This document shows, in pieces, positions 22,026 through 40,721 of a stretch of 64,000 nt of DNA. Source of the DNA: an uncultured Methanosarcinales archaeon (GTDB lineage Archaea > Nanobdellota > Nanobdellia > Woesearchaeales > ARS49). Position 1 is the stretch's first letter. Every line of letters starts with the position of its first letter. Where the stretch lies: assembly GCA_964353335.1 (NCBI GenBank), contig CAYGVI010000003.1, forward strand, positions 130,695 to 194,694. Direction: 5' to 3'. The position numbers and the translations under genes were made by a program. Below the pieces are notes generated by a model. That model was given only the letters and a program-made list of their open reading frames with translations. It had not been told where the DNA came from and did no database searches.

Positions 22026-22061
22026 GCACCCAAGTCCGTGAATATGCTATATAAAGATTAT

Positions 22062-23092: not shown

Positions 23093-23201
23093 ATTTTTAA
23101 TAATATCGAAATGGTTTTAAAGCTTTTCTTTTGCCGGGTGAAAAGTCATCAAAAGGTCTTGTGGCAAGCTGAATCCCAAGAGCGATGTTGTTTGGGGCAA
23201 T

Positions 23202-23927
23202 TTACTTATTGTAAACCCCCCTTAAATCGTTCATTCTTATTTTCACAATATCTCTGCCATTATGGGTTATGTTCCCTATCGCAGTGAAATTGCTTGAGTC
23301 AGAATCTATCCATGTGATGGGCACTTCTTTGATATGAAAACCGAATTTTTTTGCGAGATATAGAAGTTCGACATCAAATGCGCCGTCCCTGATTGTCTGC
23401 TTCTCAAAAATAACCCTGCAATGTCTCTTGAACATCTTAAATCCGCACTGGGTGTCCTTTATCTTCATGTTTAATATCAACCGTTTCCAGAAGGAAAAGC
23501 CCCTGCTAAGAACCATCTTGAAAAACTTCCTTTCTATTTTTGATTCCTTGAGCGCTCTTGATGCAATAAGGATATCATAGTCATCAATAATTTCCAGGAA
23601 TTTGTTAACTTCGCATAATGGGGTGCTTAAATCATTGTCATAAAACAGGATAAGGCCGTATTTTGCCTGCATTGCCCCTGCCCTGACTGAAAACCCCTTT
23701 CTCAGGCGTTCCTGGTTGACTATCAGCTTCAGCTCCTTGTTTTTTGAAAGGTGCTTCTGAATTGTGCTGATTGTCTGGTCTCCTGAGCGGTCAGCGACAA
23801 AGATAATCTCAAAATTGCCAATTAGCGGGTTGTTCCTGAAAAAGAACAGAGATTCTATGATGCACCGCTCAACACGCTTTTCTTCCTTGTATACCGGAAC
23901 AACAACAGATATATCGTGCTTTTTCAT
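23202..23927 (-). CDS. GT2 glycosyltransferase
   Basis: ISVVVPVYKEEKRVERCI..IFVADRSGDQT; AT-rich. Confidence 0.8.
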   Translation of the reverse strand: MKKHDISVVVPVYKEEKRVERCIIESLFFFRNNPLIGNFEIIFVADRSGDQTISTIQKHLSKNKELKLIVNQERLRKGFSVRAGAMQAKYGLILFYDNDLSTPLCEVNKFLEIIDDYDILIASRALKESKIERKFFKMVLSRGFSFWKRLILNMKIKDTQCGFKMFKRHCRVIFEKQTIRDGAFDVELLYLAKKFGFHIKEVPITWIDSDSSNFTAIGNITHNGRDIVKIRMNDLRGVYNK

Positions 23928-23993
23928 TGATGATATGCCCTTGGGAATCCTTTATAAAATTATCCCTTTTTGGCAGGGGAAGAAAAATCAGGC

Positions 23994-24980: not shown

Positions 24981-25714
24981 GTTTTCACCTTTCCTGTCCG
25001 CAGGTCATTCTCTGCCTCTTTTAACCTTTCGGCAGTTCCGATGTCTTTTAGGTATTCTGTGGTGTAATATCCGTAGACCTTGAATTTGTTCTTAACCAGC
25101 GATGGAAGGATATCTTTTCCAAAATCAAAACTGCCTGATTCCGGAATCAGTGAGAAGCATTCGGGGTTAAGTATGTACAATGCCGCATTGGTGATGTTGC
25201 CGTAATCCGCATTTCCCGGCTTGTGCACAAGCTTTTCAACTTCGCCTGACTTGTTCATTATCACCACGTCGCTGTCTTCAGGGTGGCGTGATTCGTGCAC
25301 GACCAGTGTTGCCTGCGCACCGCGCTCAAAATGGAAATCAATAATTTTTCTCAGGTCAATGTTAATCAGCACATCGCCGTACAAGACCACAACAGGCTGT
25401 TTTTCCTTCTCAAGGTGCTTTAATCCGCCGCAGGTCCCCATTGGCTCTTTTTCTACAAAATATTCTATTGCGCAGTTGAAGCGCCCGCCGTTTCCAAAAT
25501 AATCCTCGATTTTTTTTGAAAGATATCCTGTTTTCAACAGAAACCTTGAAAGCCCGTTTTTCCTTGCATGCGACAGGATGTGCTCAAGGATTGGCTTTCC
25601 AAGCAGGTCAATCATTGGTTTTGGCTTGTCAGTTGCAATACCCTGCAGCCTTTTCCCAACTCCTCCTGCAATAATGACCGTTTTAATGTCGCCCAGCGGA
25701 ATATCCATTCCCAC
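24977..25714 (-). CDS. hddC: D-glycero-alpha-D-manno-heptose 1-phosphate guanylyltransferase (NTP_transferase)
   Basis: KTVIIAGGVGKRLQGIATDKPKPMIDLLGKPILEHIL: sugar-1-P nucleotidyltransferase signature; overlaps hddA by 4 nt. Confidence 0.75.
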   Translation of the reverse strand: MGMDIPLGDIKTVIIAGGVGKRLQGIATDKPKPMIDLLGKPILEHILSHARKNGLSRFLLKTGYLSKKIEDYFGNGGRFNCAIEYFVEKEPMGTCGGLKHLEKEKQPVVVLYGDVLINIDLRKIIDFHFERGAQATLVVHESRHPEDSDVVIMNKSGEVEKLVHKPGNADYGNITNAALYILNPECFSLIPESGSFDFGKDILPSLVKNKFKVYGYYTTEYLKDIGTAERLKEAENDLRTGKVKT

Positions 25715-25815
25715 ACCACCATCAATGCGTTACGTACTGTTGTTTTTAAATCTTATTAACTTATAGGGGAGGGAAATACGAAAGCTTAAAAGAGAAGGTC
25801 AACGTGTGATTGAAC

Positions 25816-26394
25816 ATGAACAGAGCAGTTTTCCTGGACCGTGATGGTGTCATTAACAGAAACCTTCCTAATCTGGTGAGCGAGAAACAGTTTGAATTGG
25901 TAAGTGATTCGGTGCCTGCAGCAGTAAAACGCGCAAAAGAGGCAGGATACCGTGTAATTATTATAACAAATCAGCCTGTAATTGCAAAAGGCTTCTGCAC
26001 AAGGGAGGATGTTGAGCGCATACACGAGCATATGAAATCAATTCTTGCAGCAAAAGGTGCGCGTATTGATGCAATCTATGTCTGTCCGCATCATCCTGAG
26101 AAAGGTTTTGCTGGCGAGGTTAAGGCGCTCAAAATAGACTGTGACTGCCGCAAGCCAAAGCCAGGGCTGATACTTCAGGCGGCAAAAGAGCACCAGATTG
26201 ACCTGGGCAATTCCTGGATGATTGGCGACTCTGTTGTTGATGTTGCGGCGGGCAAGGCAGCAGGAGTAAGAACAATACTTCTGGCCGGAAGCGAAAATGG
26301 CAGCAAGGATGAAAAGCGCATAACTGCAGTCCCTGATTTTCAAGCCATTGACATTAATGAAGCGGTTTCTATTGTGCTGAACAATCATACATAA
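25816..26394 (+). CDS. gmhB: D,D-heptose 1,7-bisphosphate phosphatase (HAD, histidinol-phosphatase family)
   Basis: AVFLDRDGVIN (HAD motif I) and the GmhB zinc motif CPHHP...CDCRKPKPG. Confidence 0.85.
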   Translation: MNRAVFLDRDGVINRNLPNLVSEKQFELVSDSVPAAVKRAKEAGYRVIIITNQPVIAKGFCTREDVERIHEHMKSILAAKGARIDAIYVCPHHPEKGFAGEVKALKIDCDCRKPKPGLILQAAKEHQIDLGNSWMIGDSVVDVAAGKAAGVRTILLAGSENGSKDEKRITAVPDFQAIDINEAVSIVLNNHT

Positions 26395-26426
26395 TCTTTA
26401 AATACGTTCTCTGTGAGTTTTATTGC

Positions 26427-26648
26427 ATGGCCACAAGCTCAGCATGCCTTGTTGTCTGGAATGGCGAGGATGAGATACGCGGATGCCTAGAAAGCATAAA
26501 GAAAGTTGTTGACGAAATTATAGTTGTGCATGACGGTCCATGCAGTGACAGGAAGAAGGTTGATGAAAGACAGCAGCACGAAGAAAAGACAATAATCCTC
26601 AATGCTCAGCCTGCGGGCAAGCATCAGCCTGAACACTTACGCTGCTAG
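26427..26648 (+). pseudogene. N-terminal fragment of a GT2 glycosyltransferase (truncated)
   Basis: ACLVVWNGEDEIRGCLESIKKVVDEIIVVHDGPCSD resembles a GT2 N-terminus, but the ORF ends after 73 aa with unrelated sequence. Confidence 0.45.
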
Positions 26649-26746
26649 CGCTGCAAGAAGCAAAAGGACCAACAATGTTGCCGTGAAGCGCTCGGCAGGT
26701 ATATGAAACCATATTCTAATTGCCGTTCACACAATATATACCGAGT

Positions 26747-28540
26747 ATGGATAAGGCGTGCAGCTTCGGACGACCACAACATTTTAAAATAGGGTCTGGC
26801 TTGCGTTTGGCTGTGGAAGAGCAGCCAAAGAAAGTGTGGAACTGGCAAGTCAAGGCAGCCATTATTGCAGTTATACTGTATCTCGGGGTTGCGCTGTCCT
26901 TGTACATGAAGCTGAAGCACCTGCCCGGCCCTTATTATGGCGGCGACCTTTATGCCCACCATGGATTTGCGCTCAACTACATGGCAAACGGTTTCTGGAG
27001 CGACCCGTATTTCATCAATAATTACTCATTTTATCCCTGGCTTGGCAACTACATATTCATCGCGCTCAACCTTTTGCCAGGCATAACTGTGTTAAAGGCT
27101 GAAATGTTTGTCGGGCTTGCCACAACAATACTCTCAGCAATTGCATATTATTTTCTTGGAAGGCAGCTTTTCAAGAGCGACACCTGGGCGCTTGTGCTTA
27201 TGCTCTTCTCGCTTGTCACAAGAGGGATTCCTGACGGCGCGCCCAACCTTGTGCCATGGATGATTACGATTCCTTTCTGGTTTGCCTTCTGGCTCAAGGC
27301 AGAGGAAACAGGAAAACTGCGCGACAAGGCTCTTGCAGGATTGTTCATGGGCCTTACAAGCCTTGCCCACGTGGCATTTTTTCTTGCGGGAATGGCGGTT
27401 TTTGCTTTTACAGCAGTGGTTGAGACTTTAAAGCAGAAAGACAAGAAGCAAGCAGTTGTTGCCGCGTTCAGGCTGTATGCTCCAATGCTCATAGTCGGAT
27501 TTTTCGTGTCCCTACTGTTCTATGGACCGATAATTATCAATTATCATGCAAAGACCCTTAACCCGCTTTTCCAGTACAATGGCACTGACATTGACAACCT
27601 TGGAATTGGCTGGGTGATCAAGACGCTTTGGAACGCGACACTTAACTTTTCCTCAATTCCCGCCGCAGTCCTTAGCATACTCAGCATTATCGGGCTTGTG
27701 GTCTGCATGATGAACTGGAACAAGAAAGCGCCAAGATATGCTGTGCTTTGGTATATCGCAGGCTTTCTTGCGCCGCTGCACCACATTATCACAAGGCCTT
27801 TGCTTGGCAGGTGGATACTTCCATCACACCTCTTTGCGCTTGCCCTTCCATTGCTGATATTCGCAGTCTACGGTGTCCGCGCTGTTGAACAGTTCGCAGC
27901 CAGAAAATCCCCCAATTCGAAGCGCATTGTCGCGATTGGAGTCATAATCCTTGTGCTCCTCCTGTTCTGGCAGCGCTATAATGACTACAATGCAAATCCA
28001 TGGGTGCAGTTTGGCCAGCGCCTTGACCCTTCAACACAGGCATGGATGTCATTTGGGGTGTGGATGGAGAAAAACACAGGCATTAATGACGTTGTGCTGA
28101 GCAATGACGAGACATGCTTTGCGATGAACGGCATGAGCGGAAGAAAATGCGTATTTGTGCGCAGGACTCACGCGAACTACTTTGTTGATGTTGAGCAGAG
28201 GTATGCAGACGGAGTTGTGATGCTCTATGGCAACAACAGCGCTTTGACAAGCAGGCTTCTTGGCGATTACAAGGTGGACTATGTGCTTATTGACGCATAC
28301 ATGCAGCAGCAGCCTGTGCTTTTGGACGCGAAGTTTGAACAGTATTTGCTTGATAACAATGTAACATTCACAAAGATACGCGAGCGCAAAGACCTTTCAG
28401 TCCCTGATGCAAAAGTGTTTGACCTTCTTGCTGTTCCTTTCCAGCAGATTAACAAGGCGCTTGAGTCAAAGCTCAGCCCTGCCACAGAAGCAAATATCGG
28501 CACACAGGCGTATCTCAAGCTGTACAGGATAAATAGGTAA
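26747..28540 (+). CDS. large polytopic membrane protein, putative GT-C-like glycosyltransferase/polymerase
   Basis: About 598 aa, >10 TM with soluble C-terminal region; N-terminal TM AAIIAVILYLGVALSLYM. The start (ATG 26747 or the GTG of VWNW) is uncertain. Confidence 0.5.
   Translation: MDKACSFGRPQHFKIGSGLRLAVEEQPKKVWNWQVKAAIIAVILYLGVALSLYMKLKHLPGPYYGGDLYAHHGFALNYMANGFWSDPYFINNYSFYPWLGNYIFIALNLLPGITVLKAEMFVGLATTILSAIAYYFLGRQLFKSDTWALVLMLFSLVTRGIPDGAPNLVPWMITIPFWFAFWLKAEETGKLRDKALAGLFMGLTSLAHVAFFLAGMAVFAFTAVVETLKQKDKKQAVVAAFRLYAPMLIVGFFVSLLFYGPIIINYHAKTLNPLFQYNGTDIDNLGIGWVIKTLWNATLNFSSIPAAVLSILSIIGLVVCMMNWNKKAPRYAVLWYIAGFLAPLHHIITRPLLGRWILPSHLFALALPLLIFAVYGVRAVEQFAARKSPNSKRIVAIGVIILVLLLFWQRYNDYNANPWVQFGQRLDPSTQAWMSFGVWMEKNTGINDVVLSNDETCFAMNGMSGRKCVFVRRTHANYFVDVEQRYADGVVMLYGNNSALTSRLLGDYKVDYVLIDAYMQQQPVLLDAKFEQYLLDNNVTFTKIRERKDLSVPDAKVFDLLAVPFQQINKALESKLSPATEANIGTQAYLKLYRINR
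26768..26964 (+). repeat. direct repeat copy R (inside the 5' end of gene 26747..28540)
   Basis: About 95% identical to 22062..22258. Confidence 0.85.
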
Positions 28541-28584
28541 TCCATAAGCTTTTTAAGCATCCTGCAAGGAGCACAAATAGAAAA

Positions 28585-29631
28585 ATGGCACAAAAACAAC
28601 TTACATTCCTTATTACCGGCGGGGCAGGATTTCTCGGCCACAACCTTGCACGATATCTGTTAAAGAAAGGCTGCAAAGTAAGGACAGTTGACCTGGGTGA
28701 TTTTGATTATCCTGACATAAAGGGAGTACAGCACTTCAAGGGGGACATAAGAAACAAGGAAATACTGCGAAAGGCAGCAGCAGGTGTGGACAGTATTGTG
28801 CACGCAGCTGCAGGACTGCCTTTATGGAAGCCCGCTGAAATACGCTCTGTCAACATAAACGGCATCAAGGCAGTATTTGCTGTTGCTGAGGAGCTTGGAA
28901 TTGAGCGCGTTGTGCACATCTCAAGCACTGCTGTTTACGGAATCCCTGACCACCATCCTCTTTACGAAAATGACAGGCTTGTGGGAGTCGGTCCATATGG
29001 CGAGAGCAAGGTTGCTGCTGAAAAAATTGCAGAATCTTTCAGGAACAGGATGTGCGTCCCAATCCTCAGGCCCAAATCATTCATTGGCGCAGGGCGCCTC
29101 GGCGTATTTGACGTTCTTTTTGACTGGGTAAGGCGCGGAAAAAACATTCCAATGGTCGGCTGGGGAAACAATCTCTACCAGCTTTTGCATGTTGAGGATT
29201 TGAACCAAGCAATCTGGCTTGCATCAACAAAGCCGGCGAAGATTGCGAATGACACTTTCAATGTCGGCGCTGAAAAATTCAGCACAATGAAAAAAGACTA
29301 TCAGGCATTGCTCAACTATGCAGGCTTTCACAAGCGCGTGATAGGGACTCCGCCCTGGCTTGTGATTAACACTCTCAGGATTCTTGAAAAGCTCAAGCTC
29401 TCGCCCTTGTACAGGTGGGTTTATGAGACAGCTGATAAGGATTCTTTTGTTTCGATAGACAAAGCAAAGAAAGTGCTCGGCTTCAGGCCAAAGTACAGCA
29501 ATGTTGATGCCCTGATTGACAGCTACAAGTGGTATTTGCAGCACTACAAGGAATACCAGGGCAAAACAGGAGTCACGCACAGGGTTCCTTGGAAGCAGGG
29601 CATCCTGTCCATAGTAAGATGGTTTTTCTAA
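28585..29631 (+). CDS. NAD-dependent epimerase/dehydratase (extended SDR)
   Basis: ITGGAGFLGHNL (GxxGxxG) and YGESK (YxxxK). Confidence 0.85.
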   Translation: MAQKQLTFLITGGAGFLGHNLARYLLKKGCKVRTVDLGDFDYPDIKGVQHFKGDIRNKEILRKAAAGVDSIVHAAAGLPLWKPAEIRSVNINGIKAVFAVAEELGIERVVHISSTAVYGIPDHHPLYENDRLVGVGPYGESKVAAEKIAESFRNRMCVPILRPKSFIGAGRLGVFDVLFDWVRRGKNIPMVGWGNNLYQLLHVEDLNQAIWLASTKPAKIANDTFNVGAEKFSTMKKDYQALLNYAGFHKRVIGTPPWLVINTLRILEKLKLSPLYRWVYETADKDSFVSIDKAKKVLGFRPKYSNVDALIDSYKWYLQHYKEYQGKTGVTHRVPWKQGILSIVRWFF

Positions 29632-30560
29632 TGCGGAGAAATCATTTCTTTCGCATACTTTGAGCATGGTGAGTGCCAGGTTTTCCACATTGCTTCCCTG
29701 AATGGCGTGTACCTGACTCCAAACTCATCCCACCAGTTCTCAACAGCGAATTCGTCTCCTGCGACAAGAGCCCTCATCTGGTCTGGAGTAAAGACTGTCT
29801 TGCGGAAAACAAAGCTGTAAACCCGCAAAAGGAATCCGAAAAGCCACAATGGAAGCGGAATAAACAGCCTGTGCCATCCGCGTGTCTTTGCAATTATCCT
29901 TAGCAAATCAATGTATGGTATTTTTTCCCTGCCAATAATGTTATGAATTTTGTTCTCAGGCTTTCTTTTGGTCAGCTCAACAATCACATTGCACATATCA
30001 TTGACAAACAAGGGCTGCCTCACATATTTTCCAGAGCCAGGCACAGGGACTACTGGTATTTTTTCCATAAAACGGGTTATCCAGCCAAGGTGTTTTGCAT
30101 CAAAGCAGCCAAACATCAGCGGCGGCCTCAAAATTGTGTGCGGAACCCTGCTCTTGTGCACAAGCTCTTCGCCAATGCGCTTTGTCCTTGTGTATTCGTC
30201 TTTTGCGACAGAGATGACAACAGATGAGCTTATGTGGATTAGGTTCTTCACATTGTACTTTTTGCAGAGCTCAAGCACATTGCTGACTCCTTCAATGTTG
30301 CTTCGTTCAAAAGGCGCGGATGACTGCGCCGCGATTTGCGCGTGAAGCTCAATAACACAGTCAGCGCCTTCAAATTCCTTTTCCCACTTTCCAGGATAAC
30401 TGACATCTGTCTGGACGCAGTTTACTTTCTTGTTAAGGCGCTGCAGGAGATTTATGTTTGAATTCCGGTCTATTGCGGTTATTTTGTATCCCTGCCTGAC
30501 AAGCATTGGCATCAGATTCTGCCCTACAAGCCCTGCTGCTCCTGTGACAATTACTTTCAT
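29628..30560 (-). CDS. NAD-dependent epimerase/dehydratase (extended SDR)
   Basis: VTGAAGLVGQNL and YTRTK catalytic motif. Confidence 0.8.
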   Translation of the reverse strand: MKVIVTGAAGLVGQNLMPMLVRQGYKITAIDRNSNINLLQRLNKKVNCVQTDVSYPGKWEKEFEGADCVIELHAQIAAQSSAPFERSNIEGVSNVLELCKKYNVKNLIHISSSVVISVAKDEYTRTKRIGEELVHKSRVPHTILRPPLMFGCFDAKHLGWITRFMEKIPVVPVPGSGKYVRQPLFVNDMCNVIVELTKRKPENKIHNIIGREKIPYIDLLRIIAKTRGWHRLFIPLPLWLFGFLLRVYSFVFRKTVFTPDQMRALVAGDEFAVENWWDEFGVRYTPFREAMWKTWHSPCSKYAKEMISPH

Positions 30561-31828
30561 TTTAAGTCCTCGAGGACATATTGCGCTGCTTTTTCTCCGC
30601 TGTCAAGCGCGACGTCCATGTTCCTTATCTTTGGAAATGTCACCTGGATTCCTGCATTGTACAATCCTGCGACAGGTGTCCTGTATTTTGGCGCGTACTT
30701 TGCGTAGTCCTTGTCATAAATCGGCTCTGCATACTTGTCTTTGAAAACAAGGCAGAACTTCACGTCCATTTTCGGGAAGTATTTTCTCAGGACGCCCAAA
30801 TAGAGGTCCTTGATTTCCTCGTCTGACTTTGGCAAATCCTCTGCAGAGCCGCCATAGCGGTCAACCCATGTGATTTTTGTTTTGTACCTGTCTATAAGCA
30901 AGGAGTGCTGGTACATCACGTGCACGCGCTCGCCAAAGAAATTTATCCAGTAATTTTCAGGGTCAAGGTAATCTTTTGTGCCAAACAATATTCCGACAAC
31001 AGGAGTATAATGCAGTTTTTTGATGTCATCAGCATATTCTTTTGGCAGTCCTTTTGTGAAATGCGCAAATTCCTGCACAGGGATTGTGTTAATTAGAGCG
31101 TCATAGACCTCTGTGTGCTCTTTTCCGCCAACTTCGTATGTTATGACCTTTTTCTGGACATTCAGGCTGGTTGTTTCTGCCTTCCTGATGATTTTTCCGC
31201 CCTTTCTCAGCACATCCTGCTCAAGCCCGTCAATAACTCCCTGTATTCCGCGGGTTGGATATGTGAATTTGTCATTGAACTCGCGCTCTTTCATCCTGTT
31301 CGCAAACTGCTTTGCAGAAATCTGGCTCAACGGAATGTTGAATTTGTTCCTCGCATACAATTGGTAGTGCATTTTTTGCGTTACAGACTTTCCGCATGCC
31401 TTATTCAGCCAGGTTTCTGCGTCAAGATCATCAGGAAGCTTGTCTGGGTTGAAGAGATAAGAGACATAAAGCCCGAAAAGGCCGAACCTTATCTTGTCAA
31501 TAAGATTCAGATAATTGAACCTGAGATATTTCCAGGGCTTATTTATGTTGTAAACCCTGTTTTTCCACGCGATTGCAAGATTGATGCGCTTCCAAACATT
31601 ATTGCCGAGCAAATCATACCGCTTCAGGTACTCGAGCGTCTTTTTGTTTGTGCGGACAATGTGATGGTTGAAAATTGGTATCTGCTCGCCATCAACCTCA
31701 ACGCTTCTCGCAAGCCCGCCAAGGAAAGGCATTTTCTCAAGTATTGTAACCTCTGCCTTTCCGGAATCAAGCAGTTTGTCTGCTGCTGCAAGGCCTGACA
31801 ATCCCCCCCCAAGTATGATGGCTCGCAT
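30557..31828 (-). CDS. Rossmann FAD-dependent oxidoreductase (amine-oxidase/PPOX/Glf-like)
   Basis: ILGGGLSGLAAADKL dinucleotide-binding motif at the N-terminus; 423 aa. Confidence 0.7.
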   Translation of the reverse strand: MRAIILGGGLSGLAAADKLLDSGKAEVTILEKMPFLGGLARSVEVDGEQIPIFNHHIVRTNKKTLEYLKRYDLLGNNVWKRINLAIAWKNRVYNINKPWKYLRFNYLNLIDKIRFGLFGLYVSYLFNPDKLPDDLDAETWLNKACGKSVTQKMHYQLYARNKFNIPLSQISAKQFANRMKEREFNDKFTYPTRGIQGVIDGLEQDVLRKGGKIIRKAETTSLNVQKKVITYEVGGKEHTEVYDALINTIPVQEFAHFTKGLPKEYADDIKKLHYTPVVGILFGTKDYLDPENYWINFFGERVHVMYQHSLLIDRYKTKITWVDRYGGSAEDLPKSDEEIKDLYLGVLRKYFPKMDVKFCLVFKDKYAEPIYDKDYAKYAPKYRTPVAGLYNAGIQVTFPKIRNMDVALDSGEKAAQYVLEDLK

Positions 31829-31963: not shown

Positions 31964-32827
31964 ATGGCAATCATTGATTACGTAAAAGTGCTCAGGCCTT
32001 TGCAGTGGTACAAGAATTTGCTTGTCTTCCTGCCGCTCATATTTGTAGGCAGGCTTATGGAATTGAACCTTGTCTGGCTGGCATTTCTCGGATTTGTGAG
32101 CCTTTGCCTGTGCGCCTCATTCAACTACATCATAAATGACATTGTTGACAGGAAAAAAGACAGGGCGCACCCTGAAAAGCGCACAAGGCCGATTGCCGCA
32201 GGAAAAATTTCAGTAATCACAGCGCTCATTTGGGGAATTTTACTGCTTGCTGCGGGGCTTTATCTTGCGTTCAGTCTTAACAGGAATTTCTTTTACGCAG
32301 CAGGATTTATTGTTGTTCTCACACAGATGTACTCATTCCTCCTGAAGAGGATTGCATTTGCAGACATTCTTACTGTCGCGATTAATTTTGTAGTTCGCGC
32401 AATATCCGGGGCGTTCATTATCGGTGTAATTATTTCACCCTGGCTTGTGCTTTGCACGTTCTTTTTTGCGCTTTTCCTGCTTTCCGGAAAGCGATACGCA
32501 GACCTTGCCCTACTTGGCTCAAAGGCTGCAATGCACAAGGAAACACTCAAAGTTTACACAAAAGAGGTCGCAAACGCATTAATGATTGTTGCAACTGCAT
32601 TGCTGATTGTTGCATACGGCGCTTTTGCACTGCTCGGAACCCACCCTCAGCTCGCATTTTCCCTTCCTTTTGCCCTGTTTGTAATTTTCAGGTATTTCTC
32701 ATTGATTTATGTGGGCTCGCCAATCGCGCGCCATCCAGAGCTTGTTTTCAGGGACTGGAAAATGCTTGTTGGAATGCTCCTCTGGGCAATTGCAACATTT
32801 ATTGCGCTGTATGTTTATCCGAAATGA
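31964..32827 (+). CDS. UbiA-family prenyltransferase resembling decaprenyl-phosphate phosphoribosyltransferase (DPPR synthase)
   Basis: NDIVDRKKDRAHPEKRTRPIAAG: this NDxxDxxxD..HPxKRxRPIAAG signature is the one recalled for Rv3806c-type phosphoribosyltransferases, not the DGGGP-synthase signature. About 8 TM. Confidence 0.7.
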   Translation: MAIIDYVKVLRPLQWYKNLLVFLPLIFVGRLMELNLVWLAFLGFVSLCLCASFNYIINDIVDRKKDRAHPEKRTRPIAAGKISVITALIWGILLLAAGLYLAFSLNRNFFYAAGFIVVLTQMYSFLLKRIAFADILTVAINFVVRAISGAFIIGVIISPWLVLCTFFFALFLLSGKRYADLALLGSKAAMHKETLKVYTKEVANALMIVATALLIVAYGAFALLGTHPQLAFSLPFALFVIFRYFSLIYVGSPIARHPELVFRDWKMLVGMLLWAIATFIALYVYPK

Positions 32828-33115: not shown

Positions 33116-34195
33116 TTAAATCTCAACAACAATATCCGCAGTCGCCTCATTTATCTCAAGAATTTGCGAGAACTTCGCTTTTACTTCCTTCCAACTGAGT
33201 TTTTTCTTTGCCTCGACTATTTCATCGAGCAATTTCTTGATTTCCTGATAGTGCTCGTAAATGTATTCGCCTTTTTTGCGCTCTTCCACTGATTTTTGTT
33301 CAAGCTGCGCCAGGTTCTGCTGCTGGACTGCTATCATTGTCTCAACTTTCTGCAGCTGCGTGCTTGTCGGAGCGAGCTTCTGCTCCTTCACAGCTTCTGC
33401 AGGAAGGGCAAATATCCTGTCAAGTGCGCTGCCAAAGCTTTCAACATTCTCCCTTTTCTTGGCAGAATAGCAGTCAAATGGTATTGGAGTTGCGTCAGAG
33501 ACAATGCTTCCTTCGTAAATCAGCTGAGGAGATATTTTTTTCACAAGAAGTTCGTGCAAAATGCGGAAAATGTCATCTGCGTGCTCTTTTTTCACAGGCT
33601 CTGCAGCAGGAATTCCGCATCGTACGCAAAGCTCTTCTGCCAAAACCTTGCCCAAGCCGAACTGGACAGCCAAAGTCTTTGAAATATTGTCCTTGCTCTC
33701 TGCGAATTTCTCTGCGAATTCCCGTGAGTCAAGGTGGAATGTGTCAATGCTTTTGGGCAATTGATAAGCCTTGCCGCGCTGCACCCTGTCATTAAGCGCT
33801 AGCACAGTAATCACAATGCCTTCTCCGTCGCAAAGCACAACATTTCCCCTTCCAAACACCTCTAGATACAGGATAAACTGCTTTTCAGACCTTGTTACGT
33901 GTATTGCGATTATCCTTTCAGAACAAACCTGCTCTATTTTGCTTATCCTGCTGTTTCCTATCAGTTTCCTTAGCTGGGCTGCAAAGGGATGTATCTGTTC
34001 TGGCGTCGCAGGCCTTTGAAGCGGAGTCCAGCACTTGCCTGGCCCTGCCTGGAGCATTATTTTCACGCCAAAAGTGATAAGGATTCCGCGGTCTTCGAGA
34101 ACATAAATCTTGTCAAGCCTCTCATTTGCCAATGGCTGAAGCTCTTGCAAAAGAAAATGCAGGTCAAAAGCGGTTATTTCGGTTTTCATCATCAT
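33116..34195 (-). CDS. NFACT-N domain protein (Rqc2/NEMF/FbpA N-terminal homologue), short form
   Basis: MKTEITAFDLHFLLQELQPLANERLDKIYV matches the NFACT-N N-terminus; followed by coiled coil, but the gene ends without an NFACT-R domain. Confidence 0.55.
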   Translation of the reverse strand: MMMKTEITAFDLHFLLQELQPLANERLDKIYVLEDRGILITFGVKIMLQAGPGKCWTPLQRPATPEQIHPFAAQLRKLIGNSRISKIEQVCSERIIAIHVTRSEKQFILYLEVFGRGNVVLCDGEGIVITVLALNDRVQRGKAYQLPKSIDTFHLDSREFAEKFAESKDNISKTLAVQFGLGKVLAEELCVRCGIPAAEPVKKEHADDIFRILHELLVKKISPQLIYEGSIVSDATPIPFDCYSAKKRENVESFGSALDRIFALPAEAVKEQKLAPTSTQLQKVETMIAVQQQNLAQLEQKSVEERKKGEYIYEHYQEIKKLLDEIVEAKKKLSWKEVKAKFSQILEINEATADIVVEI

Positions 34196-34566
34196 GCTCT
34201 GCCAAGTCCTATCAGCACAACACCAAGCAGTATCCAAGCGATTCCAATCCACTTGCTCCTGTTCATCTTTTCATTAAGCATTTTTGTGGACCACAGGCAG
34301 GTCCATATGTACGTGACAGATGTGATTGGGTAAAGAACTGAAAGCTCGCCATGCCTGAGCCCCCATACAAAAAATATTGCTGAAATGCCGAAAAGCCCAC
34401 ACCCTATTATTGCATTGTAGTTTTTCAGGATAATCATTGGGTTCTTGAGTATTTTTATCGGGTTAATCGTGAATTTTTCAGCGCCTTTTTTCATGAAAAT
34501 AGGTCCAAGTGCTCCTATTAGCGTTCCCAAAAGAACAAGCCCTACTCCAAGCAAGTCAGTAGTCAT
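34192..34566 (-). CDS. EamA/DMT 4-TM half-transporter (ArnE/ArnF-like)
   Basis: 124 aa, 4 TM; pattern VLYPITSVTYIW...GIAWILLGVVLIG as in ArnE/ArnF. Confidence 0.65.
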   Translation of the reverse strand: MTTDLLGVGLVLLGTLIGALGPIFMKKGAEKFTINPIKILKNPMIILKNYNAIIGCGLFGISAIFFVWGLRHGELSVLYPITSVTYIWTCLWSTKMLNEKMNRSKWIGIAWILLGVVLIGLGRA

Positions 34567-34925
34567 GGTGTGACCACCTGGCCGTGCTTGTGAGACCCTC
34601 TTCCTATCATCACAACGCCAACTATTACTGCTGCCATTCCTGCGAACTTGAACCCATTAAGCGGCTCTGCGAGATAAAGTGCTGAAAGGATGCTTACCCA
34701 GATGTAATTTGTTGCATACATCGGATAAAGCACAGAAACCTCTCCTCCCTTGAATGAAACTATCAGGAGTGCTGCTGCGATTACATATGTGCCTAATGCG
34801 ACCATCAGAGGGGTATTGGTAACAAGCTCAGGAAGCCTCATTGCGCCGAATTTCCACATAAGCTGGCCGACAGAAGTGATAATTGTGCAAAAAAGAATCA
34901 ACAAAATTGACTTGAGCTGGGTCAT
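34563..34925 (-). CDS. EamA/DMT 4-TM half-transporter (ArnE/ArnF-like), partner of 34192..34566
   Basis: 120 aa, 4 TM; SVLYPMYATNYIWVSILSALYLAEP..AGMAAVIVGVVMIG. Confidence 0.65.
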   Translation of the reverse strand: MTQLKSILLILFCTIITSVGQLMWKFGAMRLPELVTNTPLMVALGTYVIAAALLIVSFKGGEVSVLYPMYATNYIWVSILSALYLAEPLNGFKFAGMAAVIVGVVMIGRGSHKHGQVVTP

Positions 34926-36670
34926 TACTCCTGGTCCTCGTATAGGAGCTGTATGACATATGCGTACGCAGGCCTTGTGATGAATACGCCGATTGAGGCT
35001 CCGATTATTGTTGTGAGGGCAAAGCCCTTGAGCAGTCCTGCGCCTGCGAACAGCAATGGAAGCATTGCAACAACAACTGTGCAGTATGCGCTGAATATGA
35101 TGAAGAACGCGCGCTTGATGCGCTCCCGCCAGTTGTAAACAGTCTTGTCAAGCTCCCTCTTCAGGGCTTCGTCCATTATGACAATCTGGTCATTGACACC
35201 TATGCCGACTGCGACTATGAGCCCTGCAATTGCCGCGAGGTCAAGGCTCCAGCCGAACAGGGCGTACATTCCCATTGTAAGTATGATTTCTGTAAGGCTG
35301 CAGCCGATAATTGGAAGCGCTATCTTTATCTTCCTGTAGCTTATGACGAGGATTAATGTGACAACTGCGACTGCGAGCAGCCCTGTCATCCACGCGTTCT
35401 TTACGAACTGCGAGCCAAGGGTTGGGGAAATTGTGTCAATCCTGACTATTTCAAGCTTGACAGGCAGGCTTCCTGTGATAAGCACTGTCTGCAACTTCTT
35501 CATGCTTTCAAGGGTTGCGCGTGTCGCATCATCCCTTGTAGTGCCCGAACCTCCGCCTGTTATCGCAATGTCAGTAACAGCCCTGCCACGCAGGTCGTCT
35601 GCGATGTTAAGGGAATCAACTTCCTGGTCGTCAAGGTAGAGAATCAGCTTTTCACTCAGGTAGCTTCCGTCCTGCTCTGTGACCACTTTCATATTCTTTG
35701 TTATGTCTGCCTGCCTTTGGGCTGCTTCAGGGCTGAGTGAGATGCTGAACATGAAGCTGCACGCCCATCCGCCCTGCGATGTTCCGCAGCCGCGCCTTGG
35801 GTCAATTCCGCTGCATTCTGCAGTGCGGCAGACATATGTTATGTCCTGCCCTCCGCGGAATACTGTCTGGTTTCCTATTGTCGCCTCAAACTTGCCCTGC
35901 CTTGCGAGCAAATCCTTGACTTCCTCCTCTGTTGCTCCTGCGATTTCAACAAGGATGTACCTGTTTGGCTCTCCGAGGAATCCTGGCTTGTCCTGCACTG
36001 ATGTAACAACAATGTCGCTGAGCCCGTAAACATTAAGGCGCTCCTTGAGGCTGTCAATCATTATGTTGAGCATATCAATAGTGATTTCTTCAGCAGGCCT
36101 GAGCAAAACCCTTGTTCCTCCCTGAAGGTCAAGGCCCTTGCGGAGGTTTGTTGTGGGCGCGTTGTCAATCCTGAACCCGAGGTTTTCAACACCGATTGGC
36201 TCGAGCGCGGTCGCGTTTACAAGGACCTGCTTTGTGAATGTCTTGTTTACCAGGACAACAGTGCCGTTTATTGTCTCATTAACCTCCCTTGTCTCTGTTA
36301 CGTTCTGCTCCTCTGTCCTGTTGAGCTCAATAACCCTGAATGCCTCTTTTGTTGTAAGCTTGTAAATGCTCTTGCTTGTCTTTACCTGTATTGTCTGGTT
36401 GACCCTGAGCCCTTTGGTAAATGCGTAATAGTCATCCACATTATTGATTGGCTTGTTGTTAATGCTGATTATGACTTCTTTTGACAGCGGAGTTGCTGTG
36501 GGCTTCGGGTTTGTCATGCCTGCAAGGGCTGCAGAGCTGTTCTTTGCAACGCTCTTTATCACGACGCCATTGTTCCACGGCTCTGGCATAAGCGCGAAAA
36601 CCATGAACAGTATGCAGGCTATCAGGATTATTACACGGATGTTAAGAAGGGCTTTCTTAAGGGTGCTCAT
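34925..36670 (-). CDS. secD: protein-export membrane protein SecD
   Basis: N-terminal TM, large periplasmic domain, C-terminal 5-TM bundle (LAAIAGLIVAVGIGVNDQIV). Confidence 0.85.
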   Translation of the reverse strand: MSTLKKALLNIRVIILIACILFMVFALMPEPWNNGVVIKSVAKNSSAALAGMTNPKPTATPLSKEVIISINNKPINNVDDYYAFTKGLRVNQTIQVKTSKSIYKLTTKEAFRVIELNRTEEQNVTETREVNETINGTVVLVNKTFTKQVLVNATALEPIGVENLGFRIDNAPTTNLRKGLDLQGGTRVLLRPAEEITIDMLNIMIDSLKERLNVYGLSDIVVTSVQDKPGFLGEPNRYILVEIAGATEEEVKDLLARQGKFEATIGNQTVFRGGQDITYVCRTAECSGIDPRRGCGTSQGGWACSFMFSISLSPEAAQRQADITKNMKVVTEQDGSYLSEKLILYLDDQEVDSLNIADDLRGRAVTDIAITGGGSGTTRDDATRATLESMKKLQTVLITGSLPVKLEIVRIDTISPTLGSQFVKNAWMTGLLAVAVVTLILVISYRKIKIALPIIGCSLTEIILTMGMYALFGWSLDLAAIAGLIVAVGIGVNDQIVIMDEALKRELDKTVYNWRERIKRAFFIIFSAYCTVVVAMLPLLFAGAGLLKGFALTTIIGASIGVFITRPAYAYVIQLLYEDQE

Positions 36671-37562
36671 GGTGCCCCGCCTTCTTTTCCTTGTTCTCTA
36701 AGTACCATCTTAGGATGCCTGCGTTCTGCACCCATGTGTAAATTATGTCAAAAAGCATTCCGATTGAGATTACGAGCATTATCTGCTTGACAACATCTGA
36801 CTGTGTGTAAAAGTATCCTGCCATTGAAGCGCCGAATGCTGTCAGTGACATCAGGAGTCCTGTGCGCATTGTTCCGACAGTGCGCTCAAAAATTGTCCCT
36901 TCTTTTCTTTTCAGGACCTTTGTTGTGAGAAGGATGTCTGTATCAACAGAGTAACCGATGAGCATCAGGAGGGCAGCAACACCTGCTGTTGAAAGCTTTA
37001 CCCCGAGCACGTCCAGCATTGCTATTGTGCTGATAATGTCTGAGACTGCGCACAGGATTACGAACAAGCTTGGCAAAAGGTTCCTGAAAGTCACAAAAAC
37101 AACTATGCTCATGAAAAGGAATGCGAGCGCGACAGCGATAAGGGTCTGCTTGTAAAAGCTCTGGCCGAGGGATGAGCCCATAACTTCAATTGAGAACTTG
37201 CCTTCCTCCAACGTAATTCCCTGCGCCTTGATTGCTGCAACAAGATCTGTGTCAGAGACGTCTGCGGCTTCTATTATTAGTGCTTTAACCTGGCCTGCTT
37301 CTGCTATGCTTCTTACATTAATGTCTGCAAGCGGGAATTGCGATGACAAGGCTGCCTGTAGCGCGTGGATATCTGCCTGCTCAACAGGAATTGTCATTGT
37401 GAGCCCGCCCTTGAGCGAAACTCCCTTTGCAATGAACTCTCCTGTCTGCATCTTGTGCGTTATCAGAACAGCTACGCAGGCGAAAAGAAGCAGGAAGCTC
37501 AGTATCAGCAGCTTCTTGTAATGCTTGTCATAAATGTTCAGCAAAAATGACTTTATGGTCAA
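36657..37562 (-). CDS. secF: protein-export membrane protein SecF
   Basis: 301 aa; SecF topology and conserved C-terminal TM core; overlaps secD by 14 nt. Confidence 0.85.
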   Translation of the reverse strand: MTIKSFLLNIYDKHYKKLLILSFLLLFACVAVLITHKMQTGEFIAKGVSLKGGLTMTIPVEQADIHALQAALSSQFPLADINVRSIAEAGQVKALIIEAADVSDTDLVAAIKAQGITLEEGKFSIEVMGSSLGQSFYKQTLIAVALAFLFMSIVVFVTFRNLLPSLFVILCAVSDIISTIAMLDVLGVKLSTAGVAALLMLIGYSVDTDILLTTKVLKRKEGTIFERTVGTMRTGLLMSLTAFGASMAGYFYTQSDVVKQIMLVISIGMLFDIIYTWVQNAGILRWYLENKEKKAGHHEHP

Positions 37563-37613: not shown

Positions 37614-38177
37614 TCACGCCAGCGCCTGCCACAATCCTGAATAGAAAGTAAACCCGTCAAATCCTGGGATTGGAAGCATGTTAAGGATGAACAATAGCAT
37701 GTTTATTTTCTGCGTCAGGAACCAGAAGACAAACCACTTCCTGCTTCGGATATGCCTGTGTTTCAGGACAGCCCAGGAGGAAATCCAAAGTATGAGATTA
37801 AGCGCAGGGCCTGAAACCGCGATAAGTGCATGGGTTATTGGGGGCAAAGAGCAATGGGCTCCTGTGCAGTTTATTGACACGTATGCAGGAACGAAAAACA
37901 GGAATGGCGAGTGCGCAAGCTTCAGCAGGATTCCGATTCCGAGCCAGGTGTAAGCTGCGTGGAATGTTGCCTGCATTCCTGCTGCCAAAGCCACAAACTT
38001 GTGCGCGAGCTCGTGAAGCATGAGCGCAGGGGCTGTCACAAGGCAGGCAAACCACAATGCATTCCAGTCAAACCCTTGCCGCAGTATTTTTTGCTGGAAA
38101 ATTCCCATGAAAATGTAGCCGACTGCAACAGTCATCAGCGCAGCGTCAAAAAGCTCGCGAAGCGTAAGTATCATCAT
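37614..38177 (-). CDS. site-2-protease-like membrane metallopeptidase (M50 family)
   Basis: HELAHK (HExxH) in a TM helix plus LNMLPIPGFDG (NxxPxxxxDG). Confidence 0.65.
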   Translation of the reverse strand: MMILTLRELFDAALMTVAVGYIFMGIFQQKILRQGFDWNALWFACLVTAPALMLHELAHKFVALAAGMQATFHAAYTWLGIGILLKLAHSPFLFFVPAYVSINCTGAHCSLPPITHALIAVSGPALNLILWISSWAVLKHRHIRSRKWFVFWFLTQKINMLLFILNMLPIPGFDGFTFYSGLWQALA

Positions 38178-39474: not shown

Positions 39475-40194
39475 TTAGTTGATAATCCCGTAGAATGTGT
39501 AGAGTATCCTGTCTATTGCCCTTATGAGGTCAAGCTCTTTTCCCTCGAGAATCAGGCAGTTGCCGGCAAGGATAACTCTTGGCTGTTCTGCTGTCCTGAG
39601 AAGGTAAACTCCCTTGTCAGCATCATCGCAGGTGACTATTGAGTGGTTCAGGCAGGCTTCTGAGCTGTTGACTGTGCATGCCATCTCAATCCTTCCGCCA
39701 AGCCCGCGCACAAGATTGAGCCCGAGCTCTCCCACTCCGAGTGCAATGTATTTCATGTTAGTGGTGTTTTCCCCTGGGTCAAAGGTGATGTACTGCGGCA
39801 GCTTCCTGAAAGTGATGTTAAGGTCTATGCCGCCTACTGGAACATTCTCGACTTCAAGCGGATTGTAGCGCATTCCAATGTCATACACCTGCCCGTTTTT
39901 CTGCCATTGCGTATGCCACATTCCCTCAACCTTGTTGAACTCAAAGTTATTGTAAGTTAGCTGGGCGCGCGGAGGCTCCCTGTGCAAATACTTGTATGCT
40001 AAGAAGCTTATCAGGATTAGGACAACTATTGTGGAAATAATTGCAACAGCATTTTGAACATTGCTTGCCTTTGGACTTTCCTCCTTTTTTGCCTGTTTTG
40101 CTTCAGTCACTTCATCACCTTGAATTCCTGGTAAAGTATCCTGTCTCCGACACGGTAAATTTCCCTGCCGCTTGACGCAGTTGCAATGATGCAC
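39475..40194 (-). CDS. membrane-anchored secreted hypothetical protein (paralog A)
   Basis: N-terminal TM anchor then an extracellular domain with YNxxxF..GW.T motif and several N-x-S/T sequons; the start is probably internal. Confidence 0.45.
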   Translation of the reverse strand: MHHCNCVKRQGNLPCRRQDTLPGIQGDEVTEAKQAKKEESPKASNVQNAVAIISTIVVLILISFLAYKYLHREPPRAQLTYNNFEFNKVEGMWHTQWQKNGQVYDIGMRYNPLEVENVPVGGIDLNITFRKLPQYITFDPGENTTNMKYIALGVGELGLNLVRGLGGRIEMACTVNSSEACLNHSIVTCDDADKGVYLLRTAEQPRVILAGNCLILEGKELDLIRAIDRILYTFYGIIN

Positions 40195-40721
40195 CCGTTA
40201 TTATGCTTTATGGACGTTTCGTTCCCTGACTCTAGTATCAGCACAGGCACTGTTGCTGTCGCGTTTGCGCATGTGGCTTCTGGAAGCTCATAGCCTGTGT
40301 TGTTTGTGAGCCCCCTTTGGACATAAATGCCCGCTGCCTTGCCAAGCGATTCCTCCATGTAAAACAGCGTGTCTGCTATTTCCTGCGCGTAAGTCTCCTT
40401 TGGATTGTATGAGAACCACAGGACTTTTACGCCGTCAAGGGCAACTCCTGCGCCCTCGTCAAACTGGATGTCCTCAAGCTCGCTCGGAAAGGTGTAAAAC
40501 TCAACTTTATTGTTGTTTATTTTTGTTTGCCAGCCGTTCTGTGTCCTTGTGAAGTCGGTGTCATTATACGCCAGCTGCTGGGTGTTCTCCTCGGTGAACG
40601 TGAGCGAGAAACCTATGACGCTGAGTATCATAATCGCCGCAATGAATAATGACATCCAGGTTTTCCTGCTGAATTCCATAGAAAATAGCCTCTTGCTGTC
40701 AATATTTAAAGGTTTGTGCAA
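40107..40721 (-). CDS. membrane-anchored secreted hypothetical protein (paralog B)
   Basis: Same architecture and motif (YNDTDFTRTQNGWQT) as 39475..40194. Confidence 0.45.
   Translation of the reverse strand: MHKPLNIDSKRLFSMEFSRKTWMSLFIAAIMILSVIGFSLTFTEENTQQLAYNDTDFTRTQNGWQTKINNNKVEFYTFPSELEDIQFDEGAGVALDGVKVLWFSYNPKETYAQEIADTLFYMEESLGKAAGIYVQRGLTNNTGYELPEATCANATATVPVLILESGNETSIKHNNGCIIATASSGREIYRVGDRILYQEFKVMK

Follow-up and report, generated by a model that had tools for sequence, protein, structure and literature searches.

A pair of ArnE/ArnF-like half-transporter genes in the conserved secF-secD operon of Woesearchaeota-type archaea

Introduction

What are two small four-helix membrane proteins doing immediately behind the genes of the SecDF protein-export machinery, and does their position there mean anything? 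The question is raised by a stretch of 64,000 nucleotides from an assembly labelled as an uncultured Methanosarcinales archaeon (GCA_964353335.1, contig CAYGVI010000003.1, positions 130,695 to 194,694; the whole stretch is called the window hereafter), whose minus strand carries secF and secD followed by two short genes that we call A and B. A preliminary description had likened A and B to ArnE and ArnF, the half-transporters of the drug/metabolite transporter (DMT) class that flip undecaprenyl-phosphate-aminoarabinose, had proposed them as a lipid-linked sugar flippase, and had read their linkage to secDF as a sign that protein export is coupled to glycolipid flipping. We find that the linkage is real and conserved deep within the lineage, that A and B belong to a family which by sequence is related to ArnE/ArnF and distinct from it, and that a mechanistic coupling of export and flipping is unproven.

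The locus touches on a gap in the literature. Flippases for dolichyl-phosphate-linked monosaccharides are unidentified or disputed in archaea and eukaryotes (PMC12992685). A review covering the family of small multidrug resistance (SMR) proteins left out archaea (PMC9574504), and the short DMT proteins of archaea had been remarked on in 2015 as transporters of unassigned substrate whose gene context gave no clue (PMC5898192).

The secF-secD-A-B arrangement and its conservation

The DNA confirms the four open reading frames (ORFs) secF, secD, A and B where the preliminary description had placed them, and it confirms their tight packing: secF and secD overlap by 14 nt, the stop codon of secD and the start codon of A share 1 nt (TAATG), and the stop of A overlaps the start of B by 4 nt (ATGA). 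The TGA of B in turn overlaps an ATG at position 34195 (again ATGA), from which ATGATGATG is read as MMMKTE... and at which the match to the hidden Markov model of the archaeal factor RqcH starts, and therefore the translationally coupled string is one of five genes, secF-secD-A-B-rqcH, the last being an N-terminal half. SecF and SecD score below the cut-offs of the archaeal NCBIfam models (207.9 against 282 bits for NF006353, and 323.6 against 383 bits for NF006218), these models being the unambiguous best matches, and both proteins are above the gathering threshold (GA) of Pfam SecD_SecF_C. Upstream of the string, the TATA-box-like element TTTAAAAA, centred about 35 nt before the TTG of secF, is a candidate archaeal promoter of the operon, read from the sequence only. 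Counts from a scan for sigma-70 promoters and intrinsic terminators were at or near shuffle expectation, and for an archaeal host the scan is uninformative.

To follow the pair into other genomes, an alignment of B was scanned against one genome per GTDB species. Relatives were found in 451 genomes, and the best 80 of these were analysed (loci from this and the other searches carry L-numbers below); they are mostly metagenome-assembled genomes (MAGs) of Woesearchaeota, Nanoarchaeia and other DPANN archaea, together with some of Bryobacteraceae and Terriglobia, and the closest database relatives of the window are MAGs of Candidatus Woesearchaeota and Nanoarchaeia. Sufficient upstream sequence was available for 59 archaeal loci; in 44 of them secF-secD lies directly upstream on the same strand and A starts right after secD, at SecD identities as low as about 45%. 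SecD is absent within 7 kb of the pair in 15 of these 59 loci and in all 16 informative bacterial ones. Separate look-ups of individual loci agreed with these results. The reverse test started from SecD: metagenomes were scanned with an alignment of this protein, which gave 80 loci of 49-85% identity, and where at least 800 nt of downstream sequence was available (66 loci), the pair directly follows secD in 40 and does not in 26. All these loci are phylogenetically related, so that the counts do not represent independent events. The linkage is real and deep within the lineage, and it is not universal; because the same gene order recurs in 44 of 59 and in 40 of 66 loci, the arrangement is far from chance. 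The expectation that the association with secDF would be found again in related genomes has thus been borne out. Our literature search returned no description of a secFD-linked ArnE/F-like pair, and the operon secF-secD-A-B, with its conservation, is newly observed in DPANN genomes.

Many MAGs titled 'uncultured Methanosarcinales archaeon' (L015, L018, L022, L025, L027, L028 and other 'binchicken' records) carry the same block headed by an M50-like gene, with SecD proteins 45-77% identical to that of the window, and their taxon label looks unreliable. The M50-like gene is found upstream of secF in many related loci.

Relationship to ArnE, ArnF and other small transporters

B matches Pfam EamA (PF00892) above its gathering score of 28.2 (45 bits, 1.6e-11) and A matches it below (20.8 bits, 4.9e-4), and all 14 A-family members compared match the same family, the best at 1.1e-7. 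Each of the two proteins is a single EamA half-domain, unlike the two-domain form with ten transmembrane (TM) helices. In a profile-profile comparison with hhalign they align with one another over their full length (E=4.8e-38, 32% identity), and at the level of sequence they are unambiguous paralogs. B also matches TMEM234 (PF10639) over positions 1-112 of the 113 in the profile (2.1e-8, 34.7 bits against a gathering score of 30.1), as do 30 of its 34 relatives at E<=0.01; the Pfam scan gave no TMEM234 match for A.

Against the NCBIfam models, A scores 30.2 bits with ArnE (NF011625, 4.2e-7) and 22.1 bits with ArnF (NF002816), and B scores 31.8 bits (1.3e-7) and 26.9 bits (5.2e-6), with equivalog cut-offs of 92 bits for ArnE and 99 bits for ArnF. 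These two are nonetheless the top curated families for both proteins of the window and for every one of the 34 B-family members (best E among these 2.8e-12 and 5e-10), whereas the models of SMR drug, polyamine and Qac transporters (MdtJ, EbrA/B, Qac) match between 1 and 9 of the 34 with much weaker E-values. Alignment by hhalign with proteins of E. coli (NC_000913.3) gives the same ranking. With ArnE, both A (96.4% probability, E=1.3e-9) and B (97.5%, E=8.8e-12) align over 100 columns at 24% identity; the probability is 76-84% for ArnF, 77-84% for MdtJ over a partial alignment of 41-78 columns, and 47-64% for EmrE, where only 34-41 columns in TM3-4 are covered. Multi_Drug_Res (PF00893) has no match at E<=0.01 in either protein of the window, and among relatives it is weakly matched by 5 of 34 B-family and 1 of 14 A-family members, at E-values of at least 0.003. 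Pfam scans gave no match of A or B to GtrA (PF04138), and a search of PDB chain sequences returned nothing significant, EmrE appearing at E=0.42.

Two simple assignments can thus be set aside. A and B are not SMR drug pumps, as the missing PF00893 match, the missing glutamate in TM1 and the restriction of the EmrE alignment to TM3-4 rule this out, and neither are they orthologs of ArnE and ArnF, which their scores of 22-32 bits exclude. Of the ArnE/ArnF-like character ascribed to the pair in the preliminary description, the affinity stands, in the form of the closest curated families and a full-length alignment with ArnE, and orthology does not; the assignment to EamA holds, with B above the GA, and the alternative that the pair are SMR drug exporters found no support in the Multi_Drug_Res scan. 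Because the scores lie so far under the equivalog cut-offs, A and B are best described, on sequence grounds, as a family related to ArnE/F and distinct from it, present in DPANN archaea and Bryobacteraceae. The similarity between A and B exceeds that of either one to ArnE or ArnF, and the duplication that gave rise to them was therefore probably independent of the one behind ArnE and ArnF. A profile search puts the size of the family at 11,820 clusters of 50% identity at E<=1e-3 and 2,664 at E<=1e-10, nearly all of them stand-alone proteins of about 115 aa.

Two subunits of opposite predicted topology

AlphaFold2 predicts four TM helices in each protein, with a mean confidence (pLDDT) of 92 for B and 69 for A. 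The fold search was made with the B model only, that of A being left out at this pLDDT. Compared with the PDB by Foldseek, the B model retrieved EmrE and Gdx-Clo as top matches (TM-scores 0.58-0.71, probability about 1), and as modelled B has the SMR fold.

For the analysis of topology, orthologs were extracted by a tblastn-anchored procedure from 80 species-representative genomes, which yielded 81 B and 78 A sequences. In B, lysine and arginine (K+R) residues are concentrated in loops 1 and 3, with an average of 7.9 against 1.3 in the termini and loop 2, and the sign of this bias is the same in 81 of 81 sequences. The bias of A is reversed, with 2.8 in loops 1 and 3 against 5.0 elsewhere (66 of 78 sequences), its positive charge lying in the N-terminus, loop 2 and the C-terminal tail. 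E. coli ArnE, at 7 against 0, resembles B in this respect, and ArnF resembles A. In archaea and bacteria alike, B is immediately preceded by an A-like gene (78 of 80 loci), the junction mostly being -4, -1 or 0 nt. Opposite charge bias, adjacency and paralogy together support an obligate antiparallel heterodimer of A and B. An apparent A-B fusion in L030, which would have meant a parallel topology, was rejected, as a TGA separates the two genes.

Only one of the 78 A sequences and one of the 81 B sequences have an aspartate or glutamate in TM1, and neither protein of the window does. The cation-coupled SMR subtypes need a membrane-embedded carboxylate in TM1, and in SMR proteins of the lipid type the central glutamate is missing and transport probably runs without proton coupling (PMC9574504). 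The missing carboxylate therefore argues against proton-coupled cation export as performed by the Qac, Gdx and polyamine SMR proteins, and it fits the lipid subtype. Other positions are strongly conserved: in A, T14, Q21, K25, Y67, P68, W76, V77, G96 and G103 are each at least 90% conserved, and in B the motif G73-x-L75-S76-V77-L78-Y79-P80 is conserved along with E99 and K26. Both subunits carry G-G-E-(L/V)-S-V-L-Y-P at the start of TM3 and an invariant lysine at the end of TM1.

A cassette in a housekeeping block

Does the linkage to secFD mean that export and flipping are coupled, as the preliminary description had taken it to imply? The genes that share the block speak against such a conclusion. 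The slot after B, filled by rqcH in the window, is filled by rqcH also in L001, L003 and about 12 of the 44 secDF-linked loci; in 30 other archaeal loci, including some in which the pair is not beside secD, it is held by archaeal UMP kinase pyrH (NCBIfam TIGR02076, above cut-off; for example L025 7398-8021, L062 7395-8021 and L082 7335-8033). The identity of this amino-acid-kinase-family (AA_kinase) gene matters, for an isopentenyl-phosphate kinase would have provided a link to isoprenoids; its match to TIGR02076 above cut-off rules this out.

The block also exists without the pair. In L120, L122, L123 and L135 secD is followed by pyrH, and in L104 and L130 by rqcH, with no A or B between them. 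The pair is displaced to 1.3-2.7 kb downstream of secD in L105, L145 and L171, where it still neighbours pyrH, and likewise in L166 (about 1.4 kb) and L157 (about 3.2 kb), neither of which has a pyrH match. The pair thus behaves as a cassette which may be present, absent or displaced within a conserved synteny block of housekeeping and envelope genes. Because this block also holds unrelated housekeeping genes (rqcH, pyrH, pyrG), and given the six loci with secD-pyrH or secD-rqcH junctions and no pair, as well as the 15 archaeal and 16 bacterial loci with the pair and no secDF, the linkage alone is no evidence of coupling; operon membership is in any case weak evidence of a mechanistic link in genomes as compact as these. 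We prefer to see in it the inclusion of the pair in a synteny block of a streamlined genome, rqcH being a functionally unrelated passenger of the same operon, and the inference from linkage to coupling is left without support.

Two further features of the block deserve mention. In L003, L005 and L006 the CTP synthase gene pyrG lies between the M50-like gene and secF, so that the secFD-A-B block is flanked by two pyrimidine-nucleotide genes, pyrH and pyrG. The RqcH of the window comprises the NFACT_N half only (about 357-360 aa, covering positions 1-362 of the 645-position archaeal RqcH model), and the half alone is found also in L001 (8375-9451) and L003 (8425-9498). Its recurrence beyond the window makes the half-gene look like a ribosome-rescue factor that has been split or truncated, and not like an assembly error.

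Glycosylation genes around the pair

Away from secDF, archaeal pairs tend to sit with glycosylation genes. A gene for a glycosyltransferase of family 2 (GT2), 40-44% identical to GT2_a of the window (Table 1), lies directly upstream of A in L029 (labelled Altiarchaeota) and in L044; a GT2_a-like gene is close to the pair in L042, L063 and L089, and is nearby in about six archaeal loci without secDF beyond L029 and L044. In L061 and L089 the order is STT3/AglB-GT2-small ORF-A-B, with a GT4 gene after B in L061, and in L011 the pair is adjoined by two GT4 genes and AsnB. In the protein P0155 (505 aa), a sugar aminotransferase of the DegT/DnrJ/EryC1 (ArnB) family (residues 25-340) is fused to a B-like EamA half-domain (388-500). 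In the bacterial Bryobacteraceae/Terriglobia, the pair is divergent from the signal peptidase I gene lepB in 13 of 18 loci and from manC, encoding mannose-1-phosphate guanylyltransferase, in 11 of 18.

The lepB/manC loci (L051, L053, L069, L070, L075, L077-L081, L084, L086, L088 and L009/L010) constitute a second, independent neighbourhood that joins a Sec-pathway gene to a sugar-activation gene, and it is confined to one family. The STT3/AglB gene of L061 (2133-5561), two genes upstream of A-B, encodes an oligosaccharyltransferase of 1142 aa with a C-terminal peptidyl-prolyl isomerase domain of PPIC type; L089 carries a 41%-identical homolog of it. Such a fusion of an oligosaccharyltransferase to a foldase is unusual.

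Candidate partners in the window

The window itself holds candidates for the enzymes that a lipid-linked sugar flippase would need (Table 1). The ArnT-like enzymes on which the preliminary description had leaned are there: three glycosyltransferases of the GT-C class with PMT_2 domains were found, and in addition an ArnC-like GT2, which they flank. The best NCBIfam match of this GT2_a is ArnC (3.5e-20), followed by PgfS, AglJ, the dolichyl-phosphate (Dol-P)-hexose transferase and PpgS, all below their cut-offs. Judged by these matches, the window would hold all three parts of a GT2/flippase/GT-C system, the flippase part being a candidate.

Table 1. Genes and other features of the window, numbered from its first nucleotide
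Feature	Position	Strand	Description
secF	36657-37562	-	301 aa, TTG start; heads the coupled string; Pfam SecD_SecF_C 6.9e-26, NCBIfam archaeal SecF NF006353 2e-61
secD	34925-36670	-	581 aa, archaeal type; NCBIfam NF006218 1.5e-96, Pfam SecD_SecF_C 1.4e-20
Gene A (subunit A)	34563-34925	-	120 aa; predicted 4-TM EamA/SMR-fold half-transporter, ArnF-like topology
Gene B (subunit B)	34192-34566	-	124 aa; predicted 4-TM EamA/SMR-fold half-transporter, ArnE-like topology
rqcH, N-terminal half (NFACT_N)	33116-34195	-	NFACT_N 2.2e-39; RqcH_arch NF041120 5.7e-63
TATA-box-like element TTTAAAAA	37594-37601	-	read from the sequence; in the 51 nt that separate secF from the M50-like gene
M50-like membrane metalloprotease	37614-38177	-	187 aa; Peptidase_M50 3.3e-9
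GT2_a	16954-17664	+	236 aa, ArnC/DPM1-type polyprenyl-phosphate glycosyltransferase; Glycos_transf_2 1.9e-34
PMT_2 GT-C (ArnT/Pmt-like), first of tandem	13454-15139	+	PMT_2 6.6e-5, below GA
PMT_2 GT-C (ArnT/Pmt-like), second of tandem	15136-16920	+	PMT_2 1.6e-17
Third PMT_2 GT-C	18344-20035	+	PMT_2 3.3e-23, PMT 1e-9
UbiA-family protein, decaprenyl-phosphate phosphoribosyltransferase-like	31964-32827	+	NF008977 3.9e-55, below cut-off of 234 bits
Flavin adenine dinucleotide (FAD) oxidoreductase	30557-31828	-	Amino_oxidase 9.9e-32; PRK07233 9e-73; amine-oxidase/phytoene-desaturase type
Short-chain dehydrogenase/reductase (SDR) epimerase	29628-30560	-	Epimerase 5.5e-26
Surface-glycan cluster	13454-29631		contents in the text
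Wzx/MurJ-like flippase	20526-22025		within the surface-glycan cluster
606-aa protein	26720-28540	+	only a sub-threshold DUF7027 match, no NCBIfam match
Two adjacent ORFs	39475-40721	-	239 and 204 aa; N-terminal TM segment in both, Pfam match in neither

The three GT-C genes belong to a surface-glycan cluster that also contains two GT2 genes, S-adenosylmethionine-dependent methyltransferases (Methyltransf_23, TylF), a phosphatase of the haloacid dehalogenase (HAD) superfamily, an SDR gene, a Wzx/MurJ-like flippase and a GHMP kinase with a nucleoside triphosphate (NTP) transferase. The 606-aa protein has a homolog in L063 (8139-9845; 26% identity, E=5.6e-52), two genes downstream of A-B in a GT2-rich cluster, and it may be an uncharacterised membrane component of glycosylation.

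Closer to the pair, the genes for the UbiA-family protein, the FAD oxidoreductase and the SDR form a trio that may represent a polyprenyl-phosphate-pentose pathway in Woesearchaeota and an alternative source of lipid-linked pentose. The full trio is found near the pair only in the closest relatives (L003 at 10710-13850, L013, L014, L016 and L017), UbiA alone in L012, L092-L094 and L100, and UbiA with the SDR in L138. It resembles in outline the mycobacterial pathway from decaprenylphosphoryl-5-phosphoribose (DPPR) to decaprenylphosphoryl-arabinose (DPA), although its FAD enzyme is from a different family.

Other genes near the string are those of archaeal RqcH, RLI/ABCE1 and endonuclease dU; with the closest database relatives they show the source of the window to be a DPANN archaeon of Woesearchaeota type. 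The two adjacent ORFs of 239 and 204 aa on the far side of the M50-like gene are kept in relatives (L001 1864-3056; L003 564-1735), upstream of the DHH/DHHA1 and M50-like genes, and their products are probably secreted or membrane-anchored.

Discussion

With moderate confidence, we propose that A and B form an antiparallel heterodimer of SMR fold which moves a polyprenyl- or dolichyl-phosphate monosaccharide across the bilayer without proton coupling, which thereby feeds the GT-C enzymes, and which is co-expressed with SecDF. In this proposal two 4-TM subunits would assemble in the architecture of ArnE/ArnF; a GT2 of ArnC/DPM1 type, for which GT2_a is the candidate, would make the lipid-linked donor on the cytoplasmic face; the pair would flip it; and the three PMT_2/ArnT-like GT-C enzymes of the window would use the flipped donor on the outer face, giving rise to glycosylated exported proteins or lipids. 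Among DPANN archaea of Woesearchaeota type, the pair would have settled between secD and pyrH or rqcH in a packed operon of housekeeping and envelope genes, where co-transcription and translational coupling with SecDF would lead to co-expression with the export machinery, with no need for the two to be linked physically or mechanistically. That A and B form a heterodimer, that they flip a lipid, which lipid this is and that they are co-transcribed with secFD is what we infer from the features described above.

Several considerations weigh against this proposal. With scores so far below the ArnE and ArnF cut-offs, function cannot be transferred by orthology, and the flippase activity of ArnE/F is itself said to have been deduced by Yan, Guan and Raetz in 2007 from whole-cell genetics and labelling, not from reconstitution. 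EamA/DMT proteins are mostly carriers of small metabolites. The GT2 and AglB contexts concern a minority of loci (about 8 of the 15 archaeal loci without secDF), the most conserved neighbours of the pair, secD, pyrH and rqcH, are not glycosylation genes, and a distance of 14-20 kb separates the pair from the GT2 and GT-C genes of the window, to which it is not adjacent.

Some of these considerations would be accommodated if the pair were a DMT/SMR-type exporter or importer of a small solute (a metabolite, a polyamine, a nucleotide-related compound or a toxin) with no role in glycosylation, its place in the operon reflecting housekeeping synteny. Both proteins fall into Pfam EamA, which is dominated by metabolite transporters, the MdtJ, EbrA/B and Qac models do find weak matches in some members (1-9 of 34), the commonest neighbours (pyrH, secDF, rqcH) contain nothing for glycosylation, and the genomic context of short DMT proteins in archaea gave Makarova et al. 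no hint (PMC5898192). Such a transporter would, however, have to work without the TM1 carboxylate on which the cation-coupled SMR subtypes depend (PMC9574504), and it would leave aside that ArnE and ArnF are consistently the best curated matches over the full length, as well as the recurrence of GT2, AglB, GT4 and manC in the surroundings of the pair and the fusion to a DegT aminotransferase. On balance we consider a small-solute transporter unlikely, though it is the alternative to be taken most seriously.

A variant of our proposal, with which it overlaps in mechanism, is that the pair flips another isoprenoid lipid, either a polyprenyl-phosphate-pentose made by the UbiA/FAD/SDR trio, in analogy to the proposed mycobacterial DPA translocator Rv3789, or free polyprenyl phosphate for carrier recycling. 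The UbiA protein resembles DPPR synthase (3.9e-55), it and the other two genes lie 1.3-4.5 kb from the pair, and the trio, in full or in part, recurs in the relatives listed above; moreover, GT-C enzymes acting on polyprenyl-phosphate-pentoses are established in the form of the mycobacterial Emb and Aft proteins. But this neighbourhood is limited to the clade nearest the window, distant secDF-linked loci such as L005 being without the trio, relocated pairs associate with GT2 and not with UbiA, and the FAD enzyme, with its amine-oxidase/phytoene-desaturase relationship, is not DprE1-like. We therefore regard this variant as distinctly improbable.

It is highly doubtful that A and B are accessory membrane subunits bound to SecDF, as a functional analogue of YajC or part of a glycosylation-coupled holo-translocon: the 1-nt coupling of A to secD, the persistence of the secF-secD-A-B order to about 45% SecD identity (44/59 and 40/66 loci) and the Sec-pathway signal peptidase I next to the bacterial homologs (13/18 loci) would suit such a role, but SecDF does without the pair in 26 of 66 loci and the pair without SecDF in 15 archaeal and 16 bacterial ones, secD joins pyrH or rqcH with no pair between them or has it 1.3-3.2 kb away, with pyrH downstream in some, rqcH and pyrH are coupled just as tightly with no plausible link to the Sec pathway, and lepB is transcribed divergently and neighbours the pair in a single bacterial family.

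If A and B are a flippase as we propose, they would matter beyond this locus. They represent a sizeable uncharacterised family (about 2,700 clusters of 50% identity at E<=1e-10) in DPANN archaea and Acidobacteriota, and with their ArnE/ArnF architecture, their GT2, AglB and GT4 contexts and the match to TMEM234 they are a small and tractable candidate for the flipping of Dol-P-sugars. The secF-secD-A-B operon suggests that protein export is co-regulated with surface glycosylation, in organisms for whose way of life the cell surface is essential. One may go further and speculate that the family is the long-missing archaeal dolichyl-phosphate-monosaccharide flippase, that in Woesearchaeota-type cells it works with SecDF as one unit, physically or kinetically, and thereby allows GT-C (Pmt/ArnT-like) enzymes to glycosylate proteins at the exit of the translocon, and that TMEM234 would then be a candidate flippase of Dol-P-Man or Dol-P-Glc in the endoplasmic reticulum; taken as a whole, this is a long shot.

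Comparison with known systems

Among small 4-TM proteins with the same proposed role, the flipping of polyprenyl-phosphate-monosaccharides, are GtrA, GtcA and Rv3789, the role of A/B being a predicted one. GtrA-family flippases are proposed to act in three-component GT2/flippase/GT-C systems (PMC12992685). They belong to a different protein family (PF04138), however, and GtrA proteins are not encoded as paralogous pairs. Within archaea, the proteins of arCOG03427 and arCOG03426 (COG2510), which we compared by description, are likewise short membrane proteins of EamA type; they have four to five TM helices and are expanded in Thermococci and euryarchaea (PMC5898192). TMEM234, a eukaryotic 4-TM protein of the DMT clan, is matched by B over the full profile, a relation at the level of the family only; it is a single eukaryotic gene with no described partner, unlike the paired A and B, and a literature search on its function gave only mentions of expression or association and a classification as similar to solute carriers (SLC).

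With EbrAB, MdtIJ and EmrE/Gdx the pair would share the SMR fold and the logic of antiparallel dimers or heterodimers, whereas A and B are without the central TM1 glutamate, and their similarity is confined to TM3-4 in the case of EmrE and to 41-78 columns in that of MdtJ.

The closest comparison is that with ArnE/ArnF (PmrM/PmrL), the flippase of undecaprenyl-phosphate-4-amino-4-deoxy-L-arabinose (L-Ara4N) of E. coli and Salmonella and the 'lipid' subtype of the SMR family. The differences are clear enough: no more than 24% of residues are identical with ArnE, the subunit of ArnF-like topology is encoded first, a reversal of the gene order, and the motif GGE(L/V)SVLYP sets A and B apart. The carrier in an archaeal host would be of dolichyl type and not undecaprenyl, and in most Woesearchaeota-type loci the pair lies inside the secFD operon and not in one for sugar modification. 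ArnE/ArnF are associated with ArnC-type GT2 and ArnT-type GT-C enzymes; a like association may exist for A/B, with an ArnC-like GT2 near the pair in a minority of loci and the GT2 and GT-C genes of the window 14-20 kb away, most loci showing the secFD/pyrH context. In both systems two neighbouring genes that overlap at their junction encode products of about 110-130 aa, each with four TM helices, both combine one subunit with a strong K+R bias (B, like ArnE) and one with a weaker, reversed bias (A, like ArnF), and both are missing the TM1 glutamate. With ArnE, A and B also have two motifs in common: TM1 contains S-x-(A/G)-Q-L-x-x-K, and TM3 contains (Y/A)-P-M-x-(A/S)-x-N-(Y/F)-(I/V)-W-V. Thus, while failing as an ortholog, the pair as predicted resembles ArnE/ArnF in its paired genes, its opposite topologies, its lack of a TM1 glutamate, its modelled SMR fold and its sequence affinity.

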